Under the pieces are notes generated by a model that searched no databases, was not told the origin of the DNA, and saw only the letters and a list, made by a program, of their open reading frames with translations. From a virus (Duplodnaviria; Heunggongvirae; Uroviricota; Caudoviricetes): a DNA stretch of 64,000 nucleotides. Where the stretch lies: positions 27,638 to 91,637 of the IMG/VR virus record IMGVR_UViG_2854395284_000002, one strand, 5' to 3'. The position numbers were made by a program, and so were the translations under genes. Shown here one piece after another: positions 9,995 through 61,765 of the stretch (position 1 is the first letter of the stretch; the number at the start of each line of letters is the position of its first letter).

Positions 9995-10067
9995 TGGAGC
10001 TTGCATGACTTGAACATGCGACCGTCCAGTTATGAGCTGGATGCTCTCCCAACTGAGCTAAAGCTCC
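9995..10067 (-). tRNA. tRNA-Met (anticodon CAT; could be initiator/elongator or Ile-lysidine type)
   Basis: Minus-strand sequence GGAGCTTTAGCTCAGTTGGGAGAGCATCCAGCTCATAACTGGACGGTCGCATGTTCAAGTCATGCAAGCTCCA folds as a cloverleaf. It has a 7-bp acceptor stem, an AGCTCAGTTGGGAGAGC D-arm, a CTCATAA anticodon loop and a GTTCAAGTC T-arm. Confidence 0.75.
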
Positions 10068-10223
10068 TGGTTGCACCATAAAGCGAAGCCATGCACGACC
10101 TCCAATGGATTAGTCTTTCATAATACCTTTTCGCTACATTTAGTTGCACAAAACATACGATTTTTGTGTTGCGATATTCTTTTACTTCCAACTAAACAAA
10201 GTTGCATACTTCATGATGCTAAA

Positions 10224-10304
10224 TACTGACGGTGGGACTCGAACCCACATATCTGTGATCCTGGTGTTTGAAGCCAGTGCGTATGCCAATTCCGCCACGC
10301 CAGC
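10224..10304 (-). tRNA. type II tRNA, probably tRNA-Leu (anticodon CAA)
   Basis: Minus strand GCTGGCGTGGCGGAATTGGCATACGCACTGGCTTCAAACACCAGGATCACAGATATGTGGGTTCGAGTCCCACCGTCAGTA. T-arm GTGGGTTCGAGTCCCAC. Anticodon loop TTCAAAC (U33, anticodon CAA, A37) with a C-A mismatch at the stem base. Variable arm has a 3-bp stem ATC/GAT. Acceptor stem has two G-U pairs. Confidence 0.5.
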
Positions 10305-10460
10305 ATGTGTGCGATAGTTACTTCATCCGTTTAAGACATCTTCTAACGAGGATGCTGATCCAAACCCATCGCTTAAGTGATCAGTTTATTACAAGTGGAG
10401 GCTTGTATTGCGATACATGATAAGTTTTATGTCTTTCATGCTTGGACAATTATTTATTCT

Positions 10461-12801: not shown

Positions 12802-13620
12802 TTACTGTTTGTTATTTAGCCAATCTTTGTATGGTCTCAAAAGCTCTGTATATAGTTCTTCGTCAGTCATTCTGTTCATGTTTTTGACTGCGATAAATCC
12901 AGTGTTGTCACATTTTCTACCCTTCATATCATCCAGAGATCTCAGATAACTAAAATTCTCATTTCCAATGCCAACAAACTGTACAAACATATTGTAATTA
13001 GAAAGCTCTTTCACAATTTTATTTGTTTCGTCTGTATCCCAATTTTCACCATCTGTAATAAAAATGATAAATGCTGGAATTGTACTTGGCTCAATATCCT
13101 TATAATAGGAAACAATATCTTTCAAGACTGGAGCGTAATTAGTTCCACCCATACTCATATGAGAATTCATCATAATTTTTCGAACATAGTTCTTATAATT
13201 ATCAATTGTCACTGGTTTCAAAGAATCAAAATCATTTGAAAATAGCCAAGATTCTAACTCCCCATTATCATCAAATTTAAGAGCGATTGGCAAAAGTCTT
13301 GTAATTACATCTTGTACAGATCCGTTTCTAAAAAGATTACCCATACTTCCAGAGTAATCCATAGCGAGCGCAACCCTTGCTTGATGCTTAGTCATATCAA
13401 TTTTGCTTGATTTCGACATATTAATTAGCACATTATTTAAATTTTCTGCTGACTTAGACATATCAATTACAACTTGCTGCGCTGTATTTTCTTCATGTAC
13501 CACAGCGGATGTATTATCCGCCATAGTATTTGTTGTTGTAGTCTTTTTTCCAAAAAGTTTGTCAAATAGTCCCATGATTTTTATTCTCTCCTTTGATAAA
13601 TAATTTTCGAATAACATCAA
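12802..13620 (-). CDS. von Willebrand factor A (vWA) domain protein, TerY-like
   Basis: 272 aa. MIDAS motif AMDYSGSM and TDGE. N-terminal region has a TerD-like strand motif (VIDMSKS..INMSKSSKIDMTK). The true start is possibly the internal Met (MGLFDKLF, about 13575). Confidence 0.65.
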   Translation of the reverse strand: MMLFENYLSKERIKIMGLFDKLFGKKTTTTNTMADNTSAVVHEENTAQQVVIDMSKSAENLNNVLINMSKSSKIDMTKHQARVALAMDYSGSMGNLFRNGSVQDVITRLLPIALKFDDNGELESWLFSNDFDSLKPVTIDNYKNYVRKIMMNSHMSMGGTNYAPVLKDIVSYYKDIEPSTIPAFIIFITDGENWDTDETNKIVKELSNYNMFVQFVGIGNENFSYLRSLDDMKGRKCDNTGFIAVKNMNRMTDEELYTELLRPYKDWLNNKQ

Positions 13621-16177
13621 CCACGATTACAGTGAGTGATAGTCCAATGATTGCGATCCACTGACTCATATTCATTGCTGTTGCCTGGATAAGTCCGCCG
13701 AGTGCATTACATAAAGCAATAGTTCCAAGTACAATACCTGCTGCAATATATACAAATGTTTTATTGTTTTTCAGTCCATTGAGCAAATTAATATGTTCTG
13801 TACGAATACCAAATCCATTGCATACAGACATGATGCAAAGCATTGCAAATCTTGCAGTCATAGCTTCGACATCTGTTGTAAATAATTTTGATACTGGTGA
13901 AAACATAAGAATTCCATATAGTACAATAAATGTTACTGTGCTAATAGTAATTCGTTTCTTTGCACCTCGAATAAACAATCCAGAACCCTTCTTAATTGGA
14001 TTCTCTGTCATATATTCAGCTTTCGGAGGTTCCCCGCCAAATGACAATGAATTAAGTGAATCCATGATAATATTGATAATCAGAATCTGAACGGAAGCTA
14101 GTAATGCTCCGCCAGATAAAATAGGAAATAGAATACTTAAAACCAGAAGTGAAAAGTTGATTGGCAACTGAAACTCCAAAAACATCATGATATCGTGCAT
14201 AAATGTTCTACCAAGTTCCACGCCTCTAATAATACTTGCGAAGTTATTGTCTGTTAGAATAATATCGGATGCTTCTTTTGCAACATCTGTTCCAGCTTCC
14301 ATGCCAAAGCCTACATCCGCTTTCTTTAAAGCAGGAGAATCATTTGTCCCATCTCCCGTCATTCCAACAGATCTACCAAGCTCCTGTGCAAGACTTACAA
14401 GTCTAAGCTTTGTATTAGGAGAGCATCTGGAAATAACTCTAAGAGTTGGAATAATCTTCTTAATTTCATCATCAGACATTGCCTCGAACTGTGCATTTGT
14501 AAGAGCAAGATCCCCTTCTTTATAAATACAAGCTTCTGTCGCTACTGCTACTGCAGTCTCATGGCAATCACCAGTAATTTCAATAACTTGAATACCTGCT
14601 TCATGCGCAATCTGTACAGCCTGTGGAACTTCTTTTCTTACTGGATCAACGACGCCAATAATTCCTAGAAATACCATATCATCTGGTAATGTATTCTCAA
14701 CAATGTTCCCATTCGCCATCGCCAATGCGATGCAGCGCATGGATTTTTTCGTCATTGATTTGATAACATTTAAAAGTCTCTCTTTATCTTGTTTATTAAA
14801 CGCTACAGGCTCTGAAATTAACATTTTAGAACAATGTTCGATAAGTTTCTCTGGCGCACCTTTATAATAGGAAATTCCGCTCTCAGACGTACAGGAAGAG
14901 TACTTATATTCACTTTGAAATACCTGTTTCATAATAATTTTGTTGTTTTTCTGAATGTCAAAAAACTCAGTAAAATCAACGTATTTTAAGATTGCTCTGT
15001 CAATAGAGTTTCCGCCTGTGATATTATTCTCTGCATCATATGTGGCACTATTGTTCAAACAGATATTTTGTTTGATGCAATCCCAAAGATTAGTACCCTG
15101 ATCAACTTCATTGCCATATCCGTCAATGACAGTCGTAGGTGTCATAACTCCTGTTGTAAGAGTTCCTGTTTTGTCAGTACAAATTAGATCTACGTATGCA
15201 AGTTCTGGAATCTTGTTTGGATTTTTTGCAAGAATATTGAATCGTTCCATTGTCTTGACATTCTGTTTTGTAACAAGCTTGATAATTAATGGAAGTCCTT
15301 CTGGAACAGCAGCCACAATGATTGTTAGAGCAACCGAAATATTCTGTGCAATCTTTTGGATAACTTCTAGCACACCACCATTGATATATTCCCTGAATCC
15401 AATATGCGCAATATCCGTTACCATCAGTGCAATAAACGTGACGACTGCAGCAATCGTTCCATATCTCGAAATTGTATCACAAAGTTTATCGATCGCAATC
15501 TGAAGTGCTGTTTTAGGTGGCTCAAGTGTCTGCATTTTTACAAGTGTGTCACCATTTATGGTGTTTACGCCAACTTCGCCTACGATCATCTTTCCTTCGC
15601 CAGACAGAATCGTTGTTCCAGCAAATAAGCTATTTTGATTCGTAAAATCATCGGTGGATGTTGATTTTTTGTATACATAACCATTAATTGGAATTTTCTG
15701 ACATTCTTTACTTTCTCCGTTGATAGCAGCATTGCTTACAGAAATTTTACCCTCAATAATATATCCATCCGCGTAAATTTCCTGTCCAGTTCCAATACAA
15801 ACCACATCACCAACAACTAAATTATCTTTGTTGATTGTCTGAACTTGCCCATCTCTGATAACATCACAATACCTAGTTGATGTCTTTGCTCTTAGTTCTT
15901 GTGTTGATTTTTGAATACCAAGCGCCATTTTTACACCAATATATGTACATAATGAAATAACTAAAATCACCATGATTGGTTCTGAAAATGATGCCAATCC
16001 AAATACTGCAGCGAAAATCCCATATGCAGATAATGCTAATAACAGCATCAGCGTTTTATCACCAAAGATATTTTCAATCGCAAATTCATACCACTTTTTA
16101 AGTTTTGGTTCTGGTAGTTTGTTTGAGCCATATTTTTCCCGACTCATTTTTACTTGTTCGTTTGTTAGTCCTTTCAA
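13562..16177 (-). CDS. P-type cation-transporting ATPase, P2 (Ca2+-ATPase-like)
   Basis: 871 aa. Phosphorylation motif ICTDKTGTLT, plus TGDCHETA and TGDGTNDSPALKKADVGFGM. N-terminal LTNEQV..YGSNKL as in Ca/cation pumps. Ten predicted TM helices. Confidence 0.85.
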   Translation of the reverse strand: MKGLTNEQVKMSREKYGSNKLPEPKLKKWYEFAIENIFGDKTLMLLLALSAYGIFAAVFGLASFSEPIMVILVISLCTYIGVKMALGIQKSTQELRAKTSTRYCDVIRDGQVQTINKDNLVVGDVVCIGTGQEIYADGYIIEGKISVSNAAINGESKECQKIPINGYVYKKSTSTDDFTNQNSLFAGTTILSGEGKMIVGEVGVNTINGDTLVKMQTLEPPKTALQIAIDKLCDTISRYGTIAAVVTFIALMVTDIAHIGFREYINGGVLEVIQKIAQNISVALTIIVAAVPEGLPLIIKLVTKQNVKTMERFNILAKNPNKIPELAYVDLICTDKTGTLTTGVMTPTTVIDGYGNEVDQGTNLWDCIKQNICLNNSATYDAENNITGGNSIDRAILKYVDFTEFFDIQKNNKIIMKQVFQSEYKYSSCTSESGISYYKGAPEKLIEHCSKMLISEPVAFNKQDKERLLNVIKSMTKKSMRCIALAMANGNIVENTLPDDMVFLGIIGVVDPVRKEVPQAVQIAHEAGIQVIEITGDCHETAVAVATEACIYKEGDLALTNAQFEAMSDDEIKKIIPTLRVISRCSPNTKLRLVSLAQELGRSVGMTGDGTNDSPALKKADVGFGMEAGTDVAKEASDIILTDNNFASIIRGVELGRTFMHDIMMFLEFQLPINFSLLVLSILFPILSGGALLASVQILIINIIMDSLNSLSFGGEPPKAEYMTENPIKKGSGLFIRGAKKRITISTVTFIVLYGILMFSPVSKLFTTDVEAMTARFAMLCIMSVCNGFGIRTEHINLLNGLKNNKTFVYIAAGIVLGTIALCNALGGLIQATAMNMSQWIAIIGLSLTVIVVDVIRKLFIKGENKNHGTI

Positions 16178-17183: not shown

Positions 17184-18017
17184 TTAATATTTATACTTCC
17201 ACTTATACCCTTTGCACAAAACATCTTTTTCGCATGATTTTATTATTCCAGACAAACCTTTTAGCCCTACTGATTTTGCCGCATCTGTAATTGATGCAAA
17301 TTCTTCAATAAAATTATTGTTCTCATCACATTTCATAACTGCTTTCTTTTTATTTGCCATCGTCGCTTTATATTCTCCGATATTACCTTTTTTCTCAAAA
17401 CTCCATCTATAATTATTTGCAGATTGTTGAGAGCCATTTAAACATAAACTTATATCTGTATTTCTTGTTCCTGTTTTTCTTCCGGCTTCAGCAATTGACC
17501 AAAATTCATCTATATATTCGCCATCCATTTGATATCTATATACAGTTTTGCCCCTAGTCTTTGAAGCAGACGAAAATCCTCTTCTCTTGCTTTCTTCAGA
17601 TGAGTATTTATCATAACCTTCCAAAATATGAATAATTTGATATTTTCCATGTTTAGTTATTTCATGAATGTCTTTAATAGTTTTTCCTTCATCCCACAGA
17701 CGATATATATTTGCTCTATCAATTGTATTTTTTAATGTATCTCCACCAATTGTTTGATTGTAACCATCGTTGTATGTATCGTAATATTCTATCCAATAAA
17801 TTTCTCGTTCGTTTAATTCTTCTTGTGAACATTCTTCTAAAACAATTAATTCAAAATTACTTTCACCATATTTTCTTATTGCCTTATGAATTGCCATATT
17901 GTAAGCTTTTTTGTTTACTTGTGCATTATATGATTCACTCAAATGATTTCTATATCTATACCATATATCTATACTTTGACCTATATATTTTTTATCGTTT
18001 ATTTTATTGCGTATCAT
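17184..18017 (-). CDS. GIY-YIG homing endonuclease with NUMOD-type DNA-binding modules
   Basis: 277 aa. N-terminal KYIGQSIDIWYRYRNH is a GIY-YIG motif (YIGQS ... R ... H). C-terminal repeats ANNYRWSF and GYKWKYKY are typical of I-TevI/Seg-like enzymes. Confidence 0.75.
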   Translation of the reverse strand: MIRNKINDKKYIGQSIDIWYRYRNHLSESYNAQVNKKAYNMAIHKAIRKYGESNFELIVLEECSQEELNEREIYWIEYYDTYNDGYNQTIGGDTLKNTIDRANIYRLWDEGKTIKDIHEITKHGKYQIIHILEGYDKYSSEESKRRGFSSASKTRGKTVYRYQMDGEYIDEFWSIAEAGRKTGTRNTDISLCLNGSQQSANNYRWSFEKKGNIGEYKATMANKKKAVMKCDENNNFIEEFASITDAAKSVGLKGLSGIIKSCEKDVLCKGYKWKYKY

Positions 18018-18035
18018 ATATATTCCACAATAAAT

Positions 18036-18146
18036 TTTTCTTTTTGTTATTTATTATTCATCTCCTTCTTTGGATTATTTTTTACAATTTCTTTTGCTAC
18101 ACTTGATTTTCCACTTCCACTCAGCCCGCACATAACCCAAAGCGTA
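18036..18146 (-). pseudogene. truncated N-terminal fragment of a polynucleotide-kinase-like P-loop kinase (AAA_33/Pnk-like)
   Basis: 36-codon ORF MNRPTLWVMCGLSGSGKSSVAKEIVKNNPKKEMNNK-stop. Walker A GLSGSGKS, and it resembles the T4 Pnk N-terminus ([20 protein letters not shown]). The start is translationally coupled (TAATG) to the upstream gene. It stops 18 nt before the homing-endonuclease ATG. Confidence 0.45.
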
Positions 18147-18156
18147 GGTCTATTCA

Positions 18157-18681
18157 TTATGCAAAACATTCTTTCGTAAAATCATAACCATCCTTATCAT
18201 GGAAATATAATGGTTCTCTGCTTTCATCAATATATCTTCTTTCGCTATAAGGATCTAATTTATGATACTCTACATGGTCATATGGCATTTTAATGTCATA
18301 ATCATCTTCTGTAGACTCAACAAGATAATCTCTACCACCAAATATATGATTCGGAATACCTTCTGGAATATGTTTCATATACTTTGGTTCTCTATTTACA
18401 TGGCTAGTAAATTCTTCTTTCAGCCCTTCGATAGTATACTGTTTGCCATACTCATCAAAAATTTCAATATCCATTCTATGAAATTCTAAGAACTTCAGCA
18501 TATCTTCTACTGATTTATAAGCATTACCGTGCCACTCAAACAAAGGTTTCCAACCATAACTCAGTTTCATGATATGCACTTCATATCCAAAATAAGGTGA
18601 ATCTGTAAGCTCGTACTCATTGTCAAAATACTTTGTCACAAGTTCCTTATCTTTTATCATCATATAATAATTTGTCCCCAC
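18157..18681 (-). CDS. hypothetical protein
   Basis: 174 aa ORF. Confidence 0.45.
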   Translation of the reverse strand: MGTNYYMMIKDKELVTKYFDNEYELTDSPYFGYEVHIMKLSYGWKPLFEWHGNAYKSVEDMLKFLEFHRMDIEIFDEYGKQYTIEGLKEEFTSHVNREPKYMKHIPEGIPNHIFGGRDYLVESTEDDYDIKMPYDHVEYHKLDPYSERRYIDESREPLYFHDKDGYDFTKECFA

Positions 18682-18774: not shown

Positions 18775-19284
18775 TTAACACAATTCCCACCAGAAATCAT
18801 ATAATTTATGAGCCATATTACCTTTATGTAATTCGCCCTTATATCTACGAATCTTTCTATTTGATTGCTGCTTAAAATACTTGCTACGTTTTCCACGATA
18901 CCATCTTTTATAATATGGTTTAGTGTTCTGAACATAACCATGTCCATTAATCCTAATTTCATCCATATATCCAACTGGCGCAGGATAATAACCGCCAGCA
19001 ATTTCATATAGGTGCTTAAGATTATTTTGATGCTTCAAATATCGCTCGCGTTTAGTTCTTCTCTTTTTATTTGATTGAGTTTTAACAACATTTCCCATTC
19101 GAGAATATTCTTCGCAGCATCCCATATATCCTACTTTTCCACCAATCTTATCACACCAAATAGCTCGACAAATTTCCTCTTGTGACAAATCATCAAATAT
19201 TTCAGACACTTTCATATAATCTTCATATCCATAAGGACAATCACAGCACAACATTTTATTCTCCATCATACTTCCATGCAACAA
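18775..19284 (-). CDS. hypothetical basic Cys-rich protein (true start probably ATG at about 19254)
   Basis: 169 aa as listed. N-terminal CCDCPYG...CRAIWCD...GCCEEY, and a very basic C-terminus. The ATG at about 19254 lies 1 nt after the stop of the upstream TGA-interrupted gene. Confidence 0.4.
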   Translation of the reverse strand: MLHGSMMENKMLCCDCPYGYEDYMKVSEIFDDLSQEEICRAIWCDKIGGKVGYMGCCEEYSRMGNVVKTQSNKKRRTKRERYLKHQNNLKHLYEIAGGYYPAPVGYMDEIRINGHGYVQNTKPYYKRWYRGKRSKYFKQQSNRKIRRYKGELHKGNMAHKLYDFWWELC

Positions 19285-19516
19285 CTTTATTTCTTACAGC
19301 CTTTCTTCGTACACCTGTCCCATAGGAATACCACACTTCTTCATCCGTCTTCCATTTAAAATCTCTTGTTCTTGCACATTCAGCAATGAAATAAGCTCCA
19401 TTTTTTGTTTGAACAAGAACTTTTTCAGATAATCATCCTCTTGAACATTGCGAACAATAAGTCTCTTTCATATCAGGATATTTTTCTTTTAATGAAATCC
19501 AATCATTTTTATCCAT
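19256..19516 (-). other. 86-codon gene interrupted by a single in-frame TGA (pseudogene, recoding or selenocysteine candidate)
   Basis: RBS AAAGGGTGAT, then ATG at 19516. 27 codons MDKNDWISLKEKYPDMKETYCSQCSRG, TGA (19433-19435), then 58 sense codons with no Met, ending TAA. That TAA lies 1 nt before the next gene's ATG. Confidence 0.4.
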
Positions 19517-19581
19517 AATGATCACCCTTTAAAATTGTACTTTTGTATAATTGCTTATTCTCCGAAAGAATCTGGACAAGC

Positions 19582-22386: not shown

Positions 22387-22935
22387 TCACTCCTTTGTAA
22401 TCATATCCAAGAATAACAATCTATCTTTTTTTAATGTGATATCATAATCTTTCCACTTCTCCATTAATTCTCTTATATCAAATTTATGAGGAACCACAAT
22501 CGCATAACCATGTGGAGTTTTATATAATTCATGATTTTCTAGTTCAGAATAAAAGTAAATATCATCGATAAAATCATTTACTTTTTCTTCATCGTCTACA
22601 TCAAAATCAAACAACCACTTGCTTTCATCACGATTCTCTACTTGCTGTGCAACTGAAGCTAATGTACGATTCAGCTTTGTCATACTTGGTTTATCTCTAA
22701 GCAATCTAATAATAAGTTCTTCTCTTATCTTTTCTTCATTTCTAGAATTTACAGACCGATACAATCTTGTCTGTTCGCCTGGAACTCCATCCGCTGCAAA
22801 CTTATGAAATTCTTTGATTACTCTATCTTCGTTTTCTTTATATTCTAAGATAATCTTTATACGCTCTTTGAAATTAAGAAAATCTTTGTTGTCTTTATTT
22901 CTTGAACGAATTAGATACACATATAGATCAGACAT
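22387..22935 (-). CDS. hypothetical protein
   Basis: 182 aa ORF. Confidence 0.45.
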   Translation of the reverse strand: MSDLYVYLIRSRNKDNKDFLNFKERIKIILEYKENEDRVIKEFHKFAADGVPGEQTRLYRSVNSRNEEKIREELIIRLLRDKPSMTKLNRTLASVAQQVENRDESKWLFDFDVDDEEKVNDFIDDIYFYSELENHELYKTPHGYAIVVPHKFDIRELMEKWKDYDITLKKDRLLFLDMITKE

Positions 22936-27526: not shown

Positions 27527-27766
27527 TTATATTCTCTCATTCCATTTTCGAATTGCTTCGCATTTTGTTTTATCGTGTTCCTCTTCTTTTCTATAAGTAT
27601 CTACACTACACGTTCCGCCTCTAGCATGACACTTATTGCAAATCACAAAATATGCAACTTTCGAATATCTTGTCTTTTGACCAATTCTTAATTTAGTCCA
27701 CCCGCAGAACGGGCATGGTTTTAATTCTTTTTCTTTGATATTAATCATGTTTATCACTCCTATCAA
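27527..27766 (-). CDS. Lar-family restriction alleviation protein (zinc ribbon)
   Basis: 79 aa. LKPCPFCGW...CNKCHARG...AIRKWNER matches the Lar consensus (PCPFCG ... AWN-R). Confidence 0.55.
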   Translation of the reverse strand: MIGVINMINIKEKELKPCPFCGWTKLRIGQKTRYSKVAYFVICNKCHARGGTCSVDTYRKEEEHDKTKCEAIRKWNERI

Positions 27767-34313: not shown

Positions 34314-35414
34314 TTATAGTTCATAAATATCATTTCTTGTTTCACCGTCAGAATAATAAATATTCCATTCGTCAAATAATTCTTCTAACAATTTCATATC
34401 AACCGAATATTCATTACCGTGTGTGATAGCAATTGATTTCTTATCTCCGAATGTTCCAACATCTTTTTCACATCTATCGTATAATTCTTTTAAGTCTAAC
34501 ATTCCATATCTTAATGTATCCTGATGCGGATTTGGAATATTTGTTTTATCAAACATGTACGGATTGATTAAATATTTGTCGCATTCGCTAGGAAATTTTC
34601 CTGCTCCATGTCTTGTTAAATATGTACGAGATACATAACAGGTTTCAATATTGATATCATCAGCCCAGTTAGTATTTTCAATAATTTTCTTTGGATTTTT
34701 GATACCAGTATTTGATGGTGTAAGATGTGGAAAATAATCTGTATTATTCTGATCCAAAAGAAGCCCTTGTGCTGCTTCAAAGATAATATTATCAAAAACA
34801 TTTAAAAAATCATTTGTTTCCATTTCAACACTATGAATGTTCATAAAATCCCAGTCGTTCCAAAAATGATGAAAAATTCCATCGTCAAGAAATAACTTTT
34901 CCCACTTATAAGACAATGATATCTTCTCTTTTTCAAACTGCTTTATATAATAGTCTCTGATAGAAAAATTAACATTTATTACACCAGCTTTATATCTTTT
35001 TATTGTCTCAAAAATTCCAAGCCCACAGCTACCATGCTTGTCCTTTCCACGGCTTTCTTCAATGATCTGATTCGCCATCATATCCCAAGGTGTCGTAATC
35101 ATACAGTTTTTGTTGATATAAACTTCTGGTCGATATCCTAGATTGGTCAACTCATCATATTCCTGTTTGAAAATAATAGGATTTAAAATAAAATCTTCTG
35201 GCAGATATGTAGCTGCTCCATTAAATGTGCCAGATCCAAAATGATGAAAGACATGTCGAATGCCATCTGGTGACGTAACCGTATGTCCTCGTTGCGCTCC
35301 ACCATTAGAACATATAACAATACTATTTTTCTTTTGAGAAAAATAATTTGTTATCAACCCTTTTCCCTCGTCGCCAAACGATCCACCAATCACAATCTTA
35401 ATGTCTTTCATCAT
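34314..35414 (-). CDS. adenylosuccinate synthetase (PurA) family enzyme, short form; PurZ candidate
   Basis: 366 aa. IVIGGSFGDEGKGLITNYF (PurA P-loop GDEGKGK), NGGAQRGHTV (GGHNAGHT), FHHFGSG. It is about 60-70 aa shorter than canonical PurA. Confidence 0.7.
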   Translation of the reverse strand: MMKDIKIVIGGSFGDEGKGLITNYFSQKKNSIVICSNGGAQRGHTVTSPDGIRHVFHHFGSGTFNGAATYLPEDFILNPIIFKQEYDELTNLGYRPEVYINKNCMITTPWDMMANQIIEESRGKDKHGSCGLGIFETIKRYKAGVINVNFSIRDYYIKQFEKEKISLSYKWEKLFLDDGIFHHFWNDWDFMNIHSVEMETNDFLNVFDNIIFEAAQGLLLDQNNTDYFPHLTPSNTGIKNPKKIIENTNWADDINIETCYVSRTYLTRHGAGKFPSECDKYLINPYMFDKTNIPNPHQDTLRYGMLDLKELYDRCEKDVGTFGDKKSIAITHGNEYSVDMKLLEELFDEWNIYYSDGETRNDIYEL

Positions 35415-41907: not shown

Positions 41908-42407
41908 AGTTCAACATGAGTATCAAGTTCATTAAAAATCTTCTGTATCATTGAATATACTTCGTCCCAATCTGCTCCACCACGATCACAGCCGATCTTA
42001 TATGGCATAGCAATTGTTGCACTAAAATTATTGTTCCTTTCATGTGCTTTCCAACACATAGTTCTAAAACACTTTTCTAATGCTTCCAGAGAAGTATATT
42101 GTTTTCCGTCATATCCATAGTTATCTTGTGCAAAGAAATTACAAATCCACTGTTCATTACTTGGAATTGCAATCGATCCACAGTCGTATCCAATATATTT
42201 TGGCTTGACTGGTACAATTTGTACTTTCCCCAGCATATCCGATGATGCTACCTTTTTATATTCTTCGTATACATGTGGAAATCGCTGTCTGACCTGCAAA
42301 GCCACGCCAGATCCCATCTTTCCCATACAATTTACCTGATGACAAATAAATTTTGCATCCGTATCAAATAAATTTCCTTCGATAATTTCAATCATGATTT
42401 TCTCCAT
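41889..42407 (-). CDS. macro domain protein (ADP-ribose / Appr-1-pp binding or hydrolase)
   Basis: 172 aa. N-terminal IIEGNLFDTDAKFICHQVNCMGKMGSGVALQV matches the macro-domain binding-loop pattern (vNaaN...G.GGGVa.aI). Confidence 0.65.
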   Translation of the reverse strand: MEKIMIEIIEGNLFDTDAKFICHQVNCMGKMGSGVALQVRQRFPHVYEEYKKVASSDMLGKVQIVPVKPKYIGYDCGSIAIPSNEQWICNFFAQDNYGYDGKQYTSLEALEKCFRTMCWKAHERNNNFSATIAMPYKIGCDRGGADWDEVYSMIQKIFNELDTHVELWKLNQ

Positions 42408-43860
42408 TTAGTCTTTCACGAATCTCTTCAAAAGTCTGTTCTTTTACTAATTCTCCATCTTTAAAGACGAGTTTCAGTTCATTTTCTTCTGGCATTGTAT
42501 CTTCTGCATAACCATCATGACACACGAATTTATTTTCTTCTTTTACTACACAGCAAAGTCCTTTATGAGATTTCTTCAGATTATTTTTATCTGTTTTTGG
42601 ATTCTTCTGAATGGTATATTCTTTGCCATCAATTACACAATAAGTGCTCTTCATTGCAAATCCAAAAGTATCTCTTGTTAAGCAAACCATTCCATCTTCT
42701 GGCGTACACATTGCAGAGAAAGAAAACGCACCTACTCCAAAAAGAATCGCATCTGCTGCAAATCCTAATCCTTCAAGCTGTGTCCAAATCTCTTTGATCT
42801 TACTGTACTGACAACCATCTCCGTAAATGATTCCAATCTTTGGATTTAACTCCTTATAACCTTTTGAGTTTACAGTTCCACCAAAAATCTGATATAATTT
42901 CTGAACAGTTTTTACTGAAATTTCAACGATATCGCCGCTATCAGGACGTACAAGGAATTTGCCATTATGCTCTTCGATTTCTTTTCTCAGTTTTGGAAGT
43001 GTTTCGTCAATAAGGTTCCAGTAATCAAATGTATCAGAGACATAACTGAAAGATGTATTCTTATATGTATCAGTCAGTAATCTTCTTAACAGATTTTCTT
43101 CTGTCTCGCATACAGCCAGATTACTGCATACGGTTGCATGTTCCAGGCTAACTGCTCCAATACCAATATGGTTCTTAGCACAATCAGCATCGTACATTTT
43201 ATCAATATACTGAGTTGCAGGAATTGTAGAAGTTTTATTGAAAGATAGCAGCCATGAAGAACTTGCATGAACTCCGTTCTCAATGCCGAGTCCTCTGAAT
43301 CCAAAATCCGCCATAGCCATTGCAGGATTAGCACCATCTGTAGTTTTCTCGTAAAATTCATTTGCAAGTGTTTTATATTTATGACCTACAGTTGCCCAGT
43401 TGCATGTCCCAAAAATAAAAGACTGCATAATGCATTCCAGCCATTGTACCGTCCATGCGAAATCTGGATGTGCGTTACTCATCTCGATACACGGGACTCC
43501 CATTGTTACAACAGATCCTTCTGGAAGAGCTTTGATCTCTACAGGTAAATACTGCAGATCCCATAATTTTTCGATACGTCCAAGATCATAACTCTGAGAA
43601 CCGATCTGATTATCCAGATATTCTTTATATTCTGCAATAACTTCTTTTTTTGGTCTTTTGAAGAAAGTTTCATTTGCTAAATCAATCATATATTCCTTAA
43701 TAAAACCCTGTAATCCAAAGAATACAACTTCATTCAGATTTTTGAACATTGATTTTCTAGGAGTAATATAAGAAGTTAATTTTGTAAGACCCTTTGGAAG
43801 AGCATCAGGATTTGTATTTTTATATGTATCTGCCATCAGCATAAAAGAAATGTTTCTCAT
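42388..43860 (-). CDS. Nampt/NAPRT-family phosphoribosyltransferase (Nampt or Namat-type)
   Basis: About 490 aa from the ATG at 43860 (RBS GGAGGTC; the listed ORF starts further upstream at 43947 and overlaps prs). LMADTYKNTNP and ADFGFRGLGIENG match the Nampt N-terminal TDSYK motif and the FGFRGVSS motif. Confidence 0.75.
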   Translation of the reverse strand: MRNISFMLMADTYKNTNPDALPKGLTKLTSYITPRKSMFKNLNEVVFFGLQGFIKEYMIDLANETFFKRPKKEVIAEYKEYLDNQIGSQSYDLGRIEKLWDLQYLPVEIKALPEGSVVTMGVPCIEMSNAHPDFAWTVQWLECIMQSFIFGTCNWATVGHKYKTLANEFYEKTTDGANPAMAMADFGFRGLGIENGVHASSSWLLSFNKTSTIPATQYIDKMYDADCAKNHIGIGAVSLEHATVCSNLAVCETEENLLRRLLTDTYKNTSFSYVSDTFDYWNLIDETLPKLRKEIEEHNGKFLVRPDSGDIVEISVKTVQKLYQIFGGTVNSKGYKELNPKIGIIYGDGCQYSKIKEIWTQLEGLGFAADAILFGVGAFSFSAMCTPEDGMVCLTRDTFGFAMKSTYCVIDGKEYTIQKNPKTDKNNLKKSHKGLCCVVKEENKFVCHDGYAEDTMPEENELKLVFKDGELVKEQTFEEIRERLNGENHD

Positions 43861-43861
43861 T

Positions 43862-44692
43862 TTAGACCTCCATAACTGTGATTTTATCGTGTTTTCCTGT
43901 GAAAAGACTGTCTGTTGTAAATAATCTTTCAACTGTTCCATCTTCAAGTGATTTGATTAATGTTCCTTTTTCTCTATCAAGAACTGAATTTTCGGTATGT
44001 GATGCATAAGCATAAATTCTATCTACACCACGTTCTTTCAACGCTTTTGCACTATAATATAAAGAACCGCCATATGAAATGATGTCATCAATCATCAAAA
44101 CTTTTTTACCTTTAAGATCAATATCGTTATCTCTGATTTTGAGTCCAAGAATTTTTCCTGTATTCCAATCTCGATTTTTCTCACCATAGCAATACGGAAT
44201 GTCAGAAAACAATCCAGAATATCTTTTCGAACTGCCGGCATCCGGAAAATAAAGAATAAGATTTTCTTTACTAATCTGCTCAATTACTTCATCAATATAT
44301 TCTCTTGGATTAAAAACATATACTCTATTCAAAAGCGCTGCTCCAACATTACTATGAACATCAAGTACCTCTACTCTATCAAATTCGAGCCAATTAATAA
44401 CATCAGAGAACCCTTTTAATGTAAAAACCTCGCCCTGATCATGGATTCTGTCCATTCTGGCATTCGGAAGATAAAACATTGTAAGATCAATTGATTTAAT
44501 ATATGGAAAATTTTTTAAATGTTTTGTAATATAAATCAGCGCTGAAAGTTCTTCTTCTTTCTCATACTTCCATGTAATGTTGTTATATTTCTGATAAAAA
44601 CAATCGTCTAATACGATTCTCTGTGTTCCATCTGGAAAGTGTTCTACTTTTACTTCTTTCCCATTTAAAATGATCATATCTTTATTCTCCAA
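43862..44692 (-). CDS. ribose-phosphate pyrophosphokinase family enzyme (Prs or ADPR-pyrophosphate synthetase Adps type)
   Basis: 276 aa. HFPDGTQ (Prs FSDGE) and the PRPP-binding loop GKKVLMIDDIISYGGSLYYSAKALKERG. Its stop lies 1 nt before the ATG of the Nampt-family gene. Confidence 0.8.
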   Translation of the reverse strand: MENKDMIILNGKEVKVEHFPDGTQRIVLDDCFYQKYNNITWKYEKEEELSALIYITKHLKNFPYIKSIDLTMFYLPNARMDRIHDQGEVFTLKGFSDVINWLEFDRVEVLDVHSNVGAALLNRVYVFNPREYIDEVIEQISKENLILYFPDAGSSKRYSGLFSDIPYCYGEKNRDWNTGKILGLKIRDNDIDLKGKKVLMIDDIISYGGSLYYSAKALKERGVDRIYAYASHTENSVLDREKGTLIKSLEDGTVERLFTTDSLFTGKHDKITVMEV

Positions 44693-60724: not shown

Positions 60725-61765
60725 TTAGATAATATTTTTCATGATTTCTACAGATTCTTTTTGTGCTTTTTCTTCCATTCCTCTTACATATAACAGCGTT
60801 GTATTAATTGATGCATGATGTAAATTTTTCTGTACAAGCACAATATCACCCGTTGCGTTGTACAATGTAGTACCATATGTTGCCCTTAGTTTATGTGGAC
60901 TAATTGTTTTTCCTTTTATATTACAAGCATATTTTTTTGTAATATCTGAAATTGCACTTGTTGACAATCTCTTTCCGGTTTTCCCAAGAAATAGAGCAGG
61001 TGTATCGCGTACTGTTACAAGTTGATCTCTGTATGCCAACCATTTCTGCAATTCATCTAAAACTTTTGGAATTAAAATGAATGTATGAACTTTCTTTCCC
61101 TTATCTGTTACAATCAGAGTTCCTTTATCCATATTTAAGTTCTCTATATCCATATTGGATAATGCTGCACAACGTACACCTGTAGAAAGGAAAAGTTTTA
61201 TAACTGCAATATCCCTTTGTGACCAAATGGCTGATGGTTTCCTTGTTTTCCCTGTTAGCTTATGGTCTACATTATAAAGATACGTTTGTGTTTCTTCTGG
61301 AGTCAAATAACTCTTTTCTCTTCTTTCTATTGTTCTCTGTTGCTCTCTCTTTTTTGGCTTCGTAATTTCTTCCATATAATTTTTCGAAAAAATTTTATAT
61401 GCAAACATACATTTTGAAAAAAGTTTTAGTGCAGAATAAACTGCAATTTGATAAGAAGAAACTGTTTCTAATCCATTGTCTTTATCTTGTATTTTTGCCA
61501 TATAGGATACAAAATCTCTCAGTTCAAGATCTTCTTCTTTTTCTTTTCCTGTGAACTGTAGAAATTTTAATACATCACACATGTAAACATATTTTGTCTT
61601 TTCTGATAAATCATGCATATATAAAAGGAAGTCTTGTAGATTCTTAGACTTCCCTTTCATAATGTTTTCGATTTTTCGTTTATATTTAAGTTTTTCTTCC
61701 TCTAAGCCTGTCTGGACTTTTTCATTCATTTTATTCCTCCAATTATAAATCGGCAATCGCAGCAA
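60725..61765 (-). CDS. tyrosine site-specific recombinase/integrase
   Basis: 346 aa. C-terminal catalytic region ISPHKLRATYGTTLYNATGD...LHHASINTTLLYV shows the R...HxxR...Y pattern of XerC/D-type integrases. Confidence 0.75.
   Translation of the reverse strand: MLRLPIYNWRNKMNEKVQTGLEEEKLKYKRKIENIMKGKSKNLQDFLLYMHDLSEKTKYVYMCDVLKFLQFTGKEKEEDLELRDFVSYMAKIQDKDNGLETVSSYQIAVYSALKLFSKCMFAYKIFSKNYMEEITKPKKREQQRTIERREKSYLTPEETQTYLYNVDHKLTGKTRKPSAIWSQRDIAVIKLFLSTGVRCAALSNMDIENLNMDKGTLIVTDKGKKVHTFILIPKVLDELQKWLAYRDQLVTVRDTPALFLGKTGKRLSTSAISDITKKYACNIKGKTISPHKLRATYGTTLYNATGDIVLVQKNLHHASINTTLLYVRGMEEKAQKESVEIMKNII

Follow-up and report, generated by a model that had tools for sequence, protein, structure and literature searches.

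DUF551 (PF04448 / IPR007539) is a portable domain that recurs in the early regions of phages and is still uncharacterised; examples are the V2 variant of Ea22 and YfdS (PMC10834534, PMC4776307). Here we examined a DUF551-family accessory gene that is interrupted by an in-frame TGA after 27 codons and that lies on the minus strand of a 64,000-nucleotide (nt) stretch of DNA from a virus of the Caudoviricetes (positions 27,638 to 91,637 of IMG/VR record IMGVR_UViG_2854395284_000002). This whole stretch is called the window below and all coordinates refer to it. Both the C-terminal domain of Ea22 V2 from Shiga toxin (Stx) phages and YfdS of the E. coli prophage CPS-53 are small and belong to phage early or accessory regions (PMC10834534, PMC4776307), and the same holds for the gene described here, whose intact orthologues share with DUF551 proteins the W-I-S/P and W-M-P-L-P-E signature and an end-to-end profile match. 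The orthologues are however stand-alone proteins of 91 amino acids (aa) from Firmicute-type gut phages, whereas Ea22 carries DUF551 fused to a coiled coil. The window copy itself departs from DUF551 proteins in that it is cut at residue 27, lacks WMPLPE and has no Pfam match.

An in-frame TGA of this kind has several described counterparts. Bacterial selenoprotein genes of the fdhF type also have an in-frame UGA in a small open reading frame (ORF) close to Cys codons, and phages recoded from TGA to Trp (code 4) are gut phages with an in-frame TGA where relatives have Trp (PMC11210395). The third counterpart is the ordinary nonsense pseudogene left by a phage accessory gene ('moron' or early-region gene) that is not essential. 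Such pseudogenes resemble our locus in having a stop created by a single base, intact orthologues and further lesions downstream, as well as knock-outs in sister lineages and unaffected neighbours with their own ribosome-binding sites. From these our locus differs in nothing essential, its relic being young with an open frame and its allele having apparently moved among mosaic backbones. We conclude that the in-frame TGA marks, in all probability, a small accessory gene of the phage, with a single DUF551 domain, that a recent nonsense mutation has turned into a pseudogene. The feature is real, its cause is ordinary and the kind of event is already known. This reading relies on direct observations, namely a sense codon in the orthologues, a domain that extends across the stop, additional lesions, independent knock-outs and the normal use of TGA as a stop. 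It was the first of four options that a first-pass annotation, made from the letters of the window, had listed without ranking them, and it is supported by the TGG of the relatives and by the downstream lesions.

Origin of the TGA and identity of the interrupted gene

The DNA of 28 related loci (L001-L028) was aligned with the window, L001-L019 first and L020-L028 in addition. Of the 27 related loci that keep the codon, 19 read TGG at the position of the stop, within near-identical flanks (TGG loci: L001-L009, L014, L017-L019 and L022-L028). TGA was found in six assemblies, which are the window, two IMG/VR contigs with flanks 98-99% identical to it (L010 and L011), OGDE01000030.1 (L015), OMGR01000602.1 (L016) and a Logan contig (L020). 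The codon is CGA (Arg) in L012 and L013 and TTC (Phe) in L021, a divergent intact orthologue that is 75% identical. At the protein level residue 28 is always aromatic and never Cys in a 26-member alignment (Y in 18, W in 3 and F in 2 sequences). Judging from these alignments, one G-to-A transition in the third position of the TGG codon for Trp28 created the opal stop. A sense codon in otherwise near-identical sequence is what the first-pass annotation had named as evidence against the more exotic options, and this is what the comparison of orthologues revealed.

Two particularities of the alignment deserve mention. The CGA codon of L012 and L013 is one transition away from TGA and two steps away from TGG; it may be a reversion from TGA to CGA or have come by an independent path, the direction of the change being blurred by recombination. 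In addition, protein P0004 was considered as the closest TGG allele and rejected, as the DNA of its contig, L020, reads TGA. The 'W' of P0004 at the TGA site is a database artefact, L020 (Logan SRR32733700_116902) having been gene-called with code 4, and the L020 DNA does not translate to the P0004 record.

When the two halves of the interrupted gene were joined, the product matched full-length proteins of 90-91 aa encoded by related contigs with E = 4e-44, 85-87% identity and 100% coverage. As both halves take part in this full-length match, the open frame past the TGA is not due to chance. The gene order is also the same in related contigs (64-aa gene, disrupted gene, 159-aa gene and 174-aa gene). 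Intact orthologues align end to end with Pfam DUF551 (PF04448), over profile positions 1-65 of 68 and residues 5-86. One of them, P0005, scores 22.1 bits against a gathering threshold of 22, while P0001 and P0002 reach 15.4-18.5 bits, under the 22-bit threshold. A precomputed assignment to PF04448 exists for more distant relatives, which share 43-50% identity (E about 1e-15 to 1e-17). The DUF551 signature, an N-terminal W-I-S/P and a C-terminal V-V-A-W-M-P-L-P-E, is present in all intact orthologues, and its M-P-L-P-E part is deleted in the window allele. The joined product of the window gave zero matches against Pfam. By these profile and signature comparisons, the window copy appears as a degraded remnant of a DUF551 family member and not as a functional member. 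Megablast of the region against GenBank phages gave no match and tblastn of the joined product returned only noise; the intact consensus as query yielded only weak DUF551-like matches, which were full-length.

An AlphaFold2 model of an intact orthologue, built from the 26-sequence alignment, has a predicted local distance difference test score (pLDDT) of 90.3 and a predicted template modelling score (pTM) of 0.76. It consists of a single all-beta domain with seven strands (16-21, 25-30, 33-37, 42-52, 57-65, 71-73 and 78-83). Residue 28, the Trp at the TGA position, lies inside strand 2 (25-30), and the 27-codon fragment corresponds to strand 1 and half of strand 2 only. Foldseek of the model against the PDB gave no significant match (best E = 0.32). 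The DUF551 model thus has no solved structural relative there, and the structure therefore yields no functional inference.

The layout described in the first-pass annotation, i.e. a ribosome-binding site, an ATG at 19516, 27 codons, the TGA, 58 further codons and a TAA 1 nt before the next ATG, was confirmed from the sequence and the ORF list. The features of the locus are as follows (the lesions are discussed in the next section).

19256..19516, minus strand: whole disrupted DUF551-family accessory gene, from the ATG to the terminal TAA; intact orthologues align with 100% of the length of the joined product and synteny is kept
19522..19530, minus strand: Shine-Dalgarno-like AAAGGGTGA upstream of the ATG, from the sequence and the locus alignments
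19516-19514, minus strand: start codon ATG
19436..19516, minus strand: the 27 codons MDKNDWISLKEKYPDMKETYCSQCSRG, sole part predicted to be still translated, from the sequence and the model of the intact orthologue
19433..19435, minus strand: premature stop TGA, equivalent to Trp28 (TGG) of intact orthologues in the locus DNA alignments
19259..19432, minus strand: remnant of the C-terminal 58 codons, LSEKVLVQTKNG...VVAWKYDGE, from alignments, conservation and the ratio of non-synonymous to synonymous differences (pN/pS)
19401..19406, minus strand: A6 run, which is A7 in L012 and L013, an independent +1 frameshift allele in the alignment
19355..19357, minus strand: AAA codon, which is TAA, a second in-frame stop, in the sister contig L020 in the alignment
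19310..19312, minus strand: GTA (Val) in place of Gly69 of the GTGGRR motif, Gly69 being invariant in 26 of 26 family members
19301..19303, minus strand: AAG (Lys) in place of Met72, which is 96% conserved (25 of 26) in the alignment
19273..19274, minus strand: junction of a 15-nt in-frame deletion that removed M-[HPS]-L-P-E of the near-invariant W-M-P-L-P-E
19261..19264, minus strand: GGAG Shine-Dalgarno of the downstream 159-aa gene, inside the last codons of the pseudogene
19258-19256, minus strand: terminal TAA, followed by one spacer base and then by the ATG (19254-19252) of the 159-aa gene
18775..19254, minus strand: downstream 159-aa gene, intact, with its own ribosome-binding site (ORF list; pN/pS 0.24-0.56)

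In most intact alleles of the locus alignments a longer G run is found at the position of AAAGGGTGA. Ribosomes starting at the ATG at 19516 would stop after 27 residues, and the resulting peptide would comprise the first one and a half of the seven modelled beta-strands and be unable to fold. The 58-codon tail would then be an untranslated relic, whose frame is kept presumably only because the lesion is young, and we infer that full-length protein is not produced in any meaningful quantity. The first-pass annotation had stated that the downstream part has no start codon of its own. This holds for ATG, none being present in frame downstream of the TGA, and has to be amended for GTG, as the ORF list contains an in-frame GTG at 19336-19334; it has no obvious ribosome-binding site before it and would yield only 26 aa.

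The downstream 159-aa gene is under purifying selection. With a ribosome-binding site of its own, it does not depend on being coupled to the broken gene. Its translation would start from the GGAG located within the relic. The 3' end AAGTATGATGGAGAAT is invariant in every allele that keeps it, the 75%-identical L021 included, because this GGAG sits in the last codons of the relic; in L026-L028 the AAGTATGATGGAGAAT 3' end was lost by deletion.

Decay of the relic and losses in other lineages

The part of the gene behind the stop is degrading already, with WMPLPE lost, an invariant Gly and a 96%-conserved Met replaced and a second stop present in a sister contig. The 15-nt deletion is common to all TGA alleles whose 3' end is assembled. 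In the 26-member alignment the window allele has replacements at G69 (26/26) and M72 (25/26) and has lost M82, L84 and P85, so that 5 of about 25 positions with at least 90% conservation are destroyed in the C-terminal half, versus none of 2 in the N-terminal part. The replacements of Gly69 by Val and of Met72 by Lys are found in the window, L010, L011, L015 and L020. L016, which has the TGA and the deletion, keeps the ancestral G69 (GGA) and M72, and G69V and M72K are therefore later than the stop. Within the same clade, L020 has in addition to the TGA a second in-frame stop created by a change from AAA to TAA.

We then considered the age of the allele by comparing the window with L016. In the flanking 64-aa and 159-aa genes the proportion of synonymous differences (pS) is about 0.19 and pN/pS about 0.23, and in the DUF551 block there are zero synonymous differences. 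The absence of synonymous differences from the block points to a recent recombinational spread and not to long maintenance. Taken together with the flanks, the TGA allele looks like a young block placed in mosaic backbones by recombination, rather than a stop that has been maintained since ancient times.

The DUF551 gene has been broken several times in related phages (lesion lineages L022-L025, L012-L013 and L026-L028; proteins P0003, P0007 and P0010-P0014). The most widespread allele, P0012, occurs in 61 contigs and 84 collection blocks and has a 1-nt deletion that changes GGAGCTTAT to GGAGTTAT (-1 frameshift). An insertion in the A6 run, giving A7 and a +1 frameshift, is found in L012 and L013 (proteins P0011 and P0014), P0007 is a 3' deletion fusion and P0010 is an N-terminal deletion fusion. 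This makes at least four independent disabling lesions in a gene of 91 codons: the TGA, the -1 frameshift, the +1 frameshift and the deletion fusions. By database contig counts, disrupted alleles are more numerous than intact ones. Across the 28 loci and where the neighbours are present, all copies of the 64-, 135- and 174-aa genes are intact, and the 159-aa gene is disrupted in one locus only. The single neighbour disruption in the 28 loci is that of L003 (3234-3750), where the 159-aa gene is split into ORFs of 69 aa and 116 aa. At the protein level, P0003 resembles the -1 frameshift allele whose frame a +1 change restores some 14 codons further on.

These losses suggest that the DUF551 gene is dispensable or that its loss is favoured. 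That it was lost under selection rather than by neutral decay we regard as unlikely. If this were the case, the protein could be one that is sensed by a host defence system, the knock-outs would be escape mutants and the pattern of recurrent lesions would be as expected. A smaller variant of the same idea would have the TGA allele maintained as a leaky hypomorph in which Trp is reinserted.

Some observations weigh against a young nonsense pseudogene. The TGA allele is found in backbones whose flanking genes differ by ~7% (window versus L016), which can be read as persistence. The 58 codons past the TGA are still open, and the TGA clade has so far been spared any frameshift. The changes within this clade, which are zero synonymous, two non-synonymous and one nonsense, show a non-synonymous excess that is not statistically significant alone, the substitutions being too few. 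By analogy with basal read-through in bacteria, a trace of protein with the native Trp at position 28 could be made. Finally, the window covers 64 kb, corresponding to the early and replication arm, and a suppressor tRNA could conceivably be encoded elsewhere in the genome.

Read-through, recoding, selenocysteine and sequencing error

Several of these points would also suit a leaky or conditional read-through of the UGA as Trp, by the near-cognate Trp-tRNA-Trp or by a suppressor tRNA encoded outside the window, the gene then being either a low-expression hypomorph or a functional gene expressed late. Basal read-through of UGA in bacteria does insert Trp, tRNA-Trp competing with release factor 2 (RF2) (PMC10570021), and the ancestral residue at the site is thus the one that misreading inserts; the downstream frame is open, the allele is common to several genomes and gut phages recoded from TGA to Trp exist (PMC11210395). 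The read-through product would however be without WMPLPE and altered at two positions that are invariant or nearly so (G69V and M72K), and the second stop of L020, a TAA, is not readable by an opal suppressor. The base that follows the stop is U (UGAU), which would make this an efficient termination context. Scans for tRNA genes in the 64-kb window and 19 related loci found neither a suppressor (Sup-TCA) tRNA nor a tRNA-Sec; only tRNAs for Met and Leu were detected. Frameshift knock-outs of the DUF551 gene are common, which argues that the gene is dispensable. Nor was the pattern expected of programmed read-through found, in which orthologues would have both the stop and the downstream ORF in common: only a single young clade has the stop, and in this clade the sequence behind it is degraded. 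In view of this, read-through or suppression, which the first-pass annotation had also put forward, is not supported and we consider it very improbable. The two tRNAs of the window, Met (CAT) and Leu (CAA), lie at 9995-10305 (minus strand), and the same pair occurs in the related locus L017.

The use of TGA elsewhere in the window bears both on read-through and on the idea that the phage or its host reads TGA as Trp throughout the genome (code 4). Such a code would agree with Trp being the residue expected at the site, and a public gene caller did apply code 4 to the sister contig L020, which gave the 'W' of P0004. TGA is however routinely used as a terminator in the window. Of 93 long stop-to-stop segments 15 end in it, and so do 12 of the 84 ORFs with 90 aa or more, in several cases with the Shine-Dalgarno and start of the next gene directly after the stop or overlapping it. 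The intact allele of the DUF551 gene itself ends in TGA in L001-L008. Same-frame TGA junctions at 22389, 62393, 59060 and 32464 were inspected as possible further split genes and all proved to be ordinary boundaries or off-frame, so that no other gene split by an in-frame TGA was found in the 64-kb window. TGG occurs 225 times in the 84 long ORFs of the minus strand. Code 11 gives a coding density of 0.875 and code 4 one of 0.870, and a test of codes 4 and 15 revealed no gain. Genuinely recoded phages, in contrast, rise from a coding density of ~78% to ~90%, a gain of about 12 percentage points (PMC11210395). They also differ from the window in having many in-frame TGA codons, not one in 64 kb, and the window shows none of the other expected signs, i.e. 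no density gain and no Sup-TCA tRNA, with decaying sequence after the TGA. The closest cultured relatives of the phage infect Clostridioides and Bacillus. Both of these genera use the standard code. For the 64 kb in hand genome-wide code 4 is thus refuted, and we hold it to be extremely improbable overall, in line with the opinion of the first-pass annotation.

The CSQCSRG-U context, in which the UGA stands near two Cys residues, had also brought selenocysteine into play. The comparison of orthologues refutes this explanation, whose probability we regard as negligible. The homologous residue is W, F or Y throughout the 26-member alignment and never Cys or selenocysteine, contrary to what bacterial selenoprotein genes would lead one to expect, and the second Cys of 'CSQC' is lineage-specific, other alleles having CSQH, CSQR, CSSR or CSAY. 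Neither folding nor Rfam revealed a hairpin of the selenocysteine insertion sequence (SECIS) type behind the UGA. A segment of 63 nt that begins shortly before this codon has a minimum free energy of -8.2 kcal/mol, against a mean of -7.8 for shuffled sequences (z = -0.19), and 77 of 200 shuffles fold as well. Moreover, the downstream RNA is identical in TGG alleles, the Rfam search gave no relevant match and, as said above, no tRNA-Sec was seen. A sequencing or assembly error with TGG as the true codon, the remaining option of the first-pass annotation, could be invoked as a single base separates TGA from TGG alleles. It is nevertheless most improbable, as different projects have yielded at least six assemblies with the identical TGA, which lies outside any homopolymer and, wherever an assembly includes the 3' end, is accompanied by the same 15-nt deletion.

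Phage context and meaning of the allele

The window has a G+C content of 33.6%, and the minus strand carries 93% of the ORFs retained by a greedy choice. Among the encoded products are RecJ-like, DnaB-like and Sak4-like proteins, a nicotinamide phosphoribosyltransferase (NAMPT), an adenylosuccinate-synthetase-like protein, a P-type ATPase, a transposase and an integrase. Because of this replication-type gene set, we assign the window, on gene content, to that arm of a large phage in which the early and replication genes lie. Lengths of 109-211 kb are reached by related contigs, some of them from human-gut metagenomes. The nearest cultured relatives are the Clostridioides phages LIBA2945 and LIBA6276 and Bacillus myoviruses (45-51% aa identity over a neighbouring protein of 374 aa). 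We take the source to be a large phage of the gut that has relatives among the Clostridioides and Bacillus myoviruses.

The surroundings of the DUF551 gene appear mosaic when the related contigs are compared. A GIY-YIG/NUMOD homing endonuclease gene (17184-18017, minus strand), absent from L001-L008, occupies the place of a P-loop kinase of roughly 296 aa (AAA_33/Zeta_toxin/KTI12-like) that the relatives encode, with an intact copy in L022. Of this kinase the window keeps no more than the initial 28 codons, at 18074-18157 within the ORF 18047-18169 (minus strand), a second gene remnant about 1.3 kb from the TGA. Further genes of the minus strand complete the picture. An 871-aa P-type cation-transporting ATPase (13562-16177; E1-E2_ATPase, Cation_ATPase_N, Cation_ATPase_C and HAD hydrolase), an unusual phage cargo, is kept in the related phage contigs L001-L008 and L026-L028. 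The adenylosuccinate-synthetase-like protein (34314-35414; PF00709), with phrog_1211 of PurZ-type label as best PHROG, may belong to a 2-aminoadenine (Z-base) or other purine-modification pathway. The nicotinamide phosphoribosyltransferase, an enzyme of NAD salvage, is encoded at 42388-43947, the transposase (phrog_2199) at 50283-51560 and the integrase-family recombinase at 60725-61765.

In all, the result is mainly a negative one: a tempting signal of recoding or selenocysteine in a gut phage is very probably a plain nonsense mutation. A lone in-frame TGA at a Trp position is no evidence of code 4, and public protein databases can mask such stops, as the 'W' introduced in P0004 by a code-4 gene call illustrates. 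The recurrent and gene-specific knock-outs, for their part, provide a modest lead on DUF551, a domain of unknown function.

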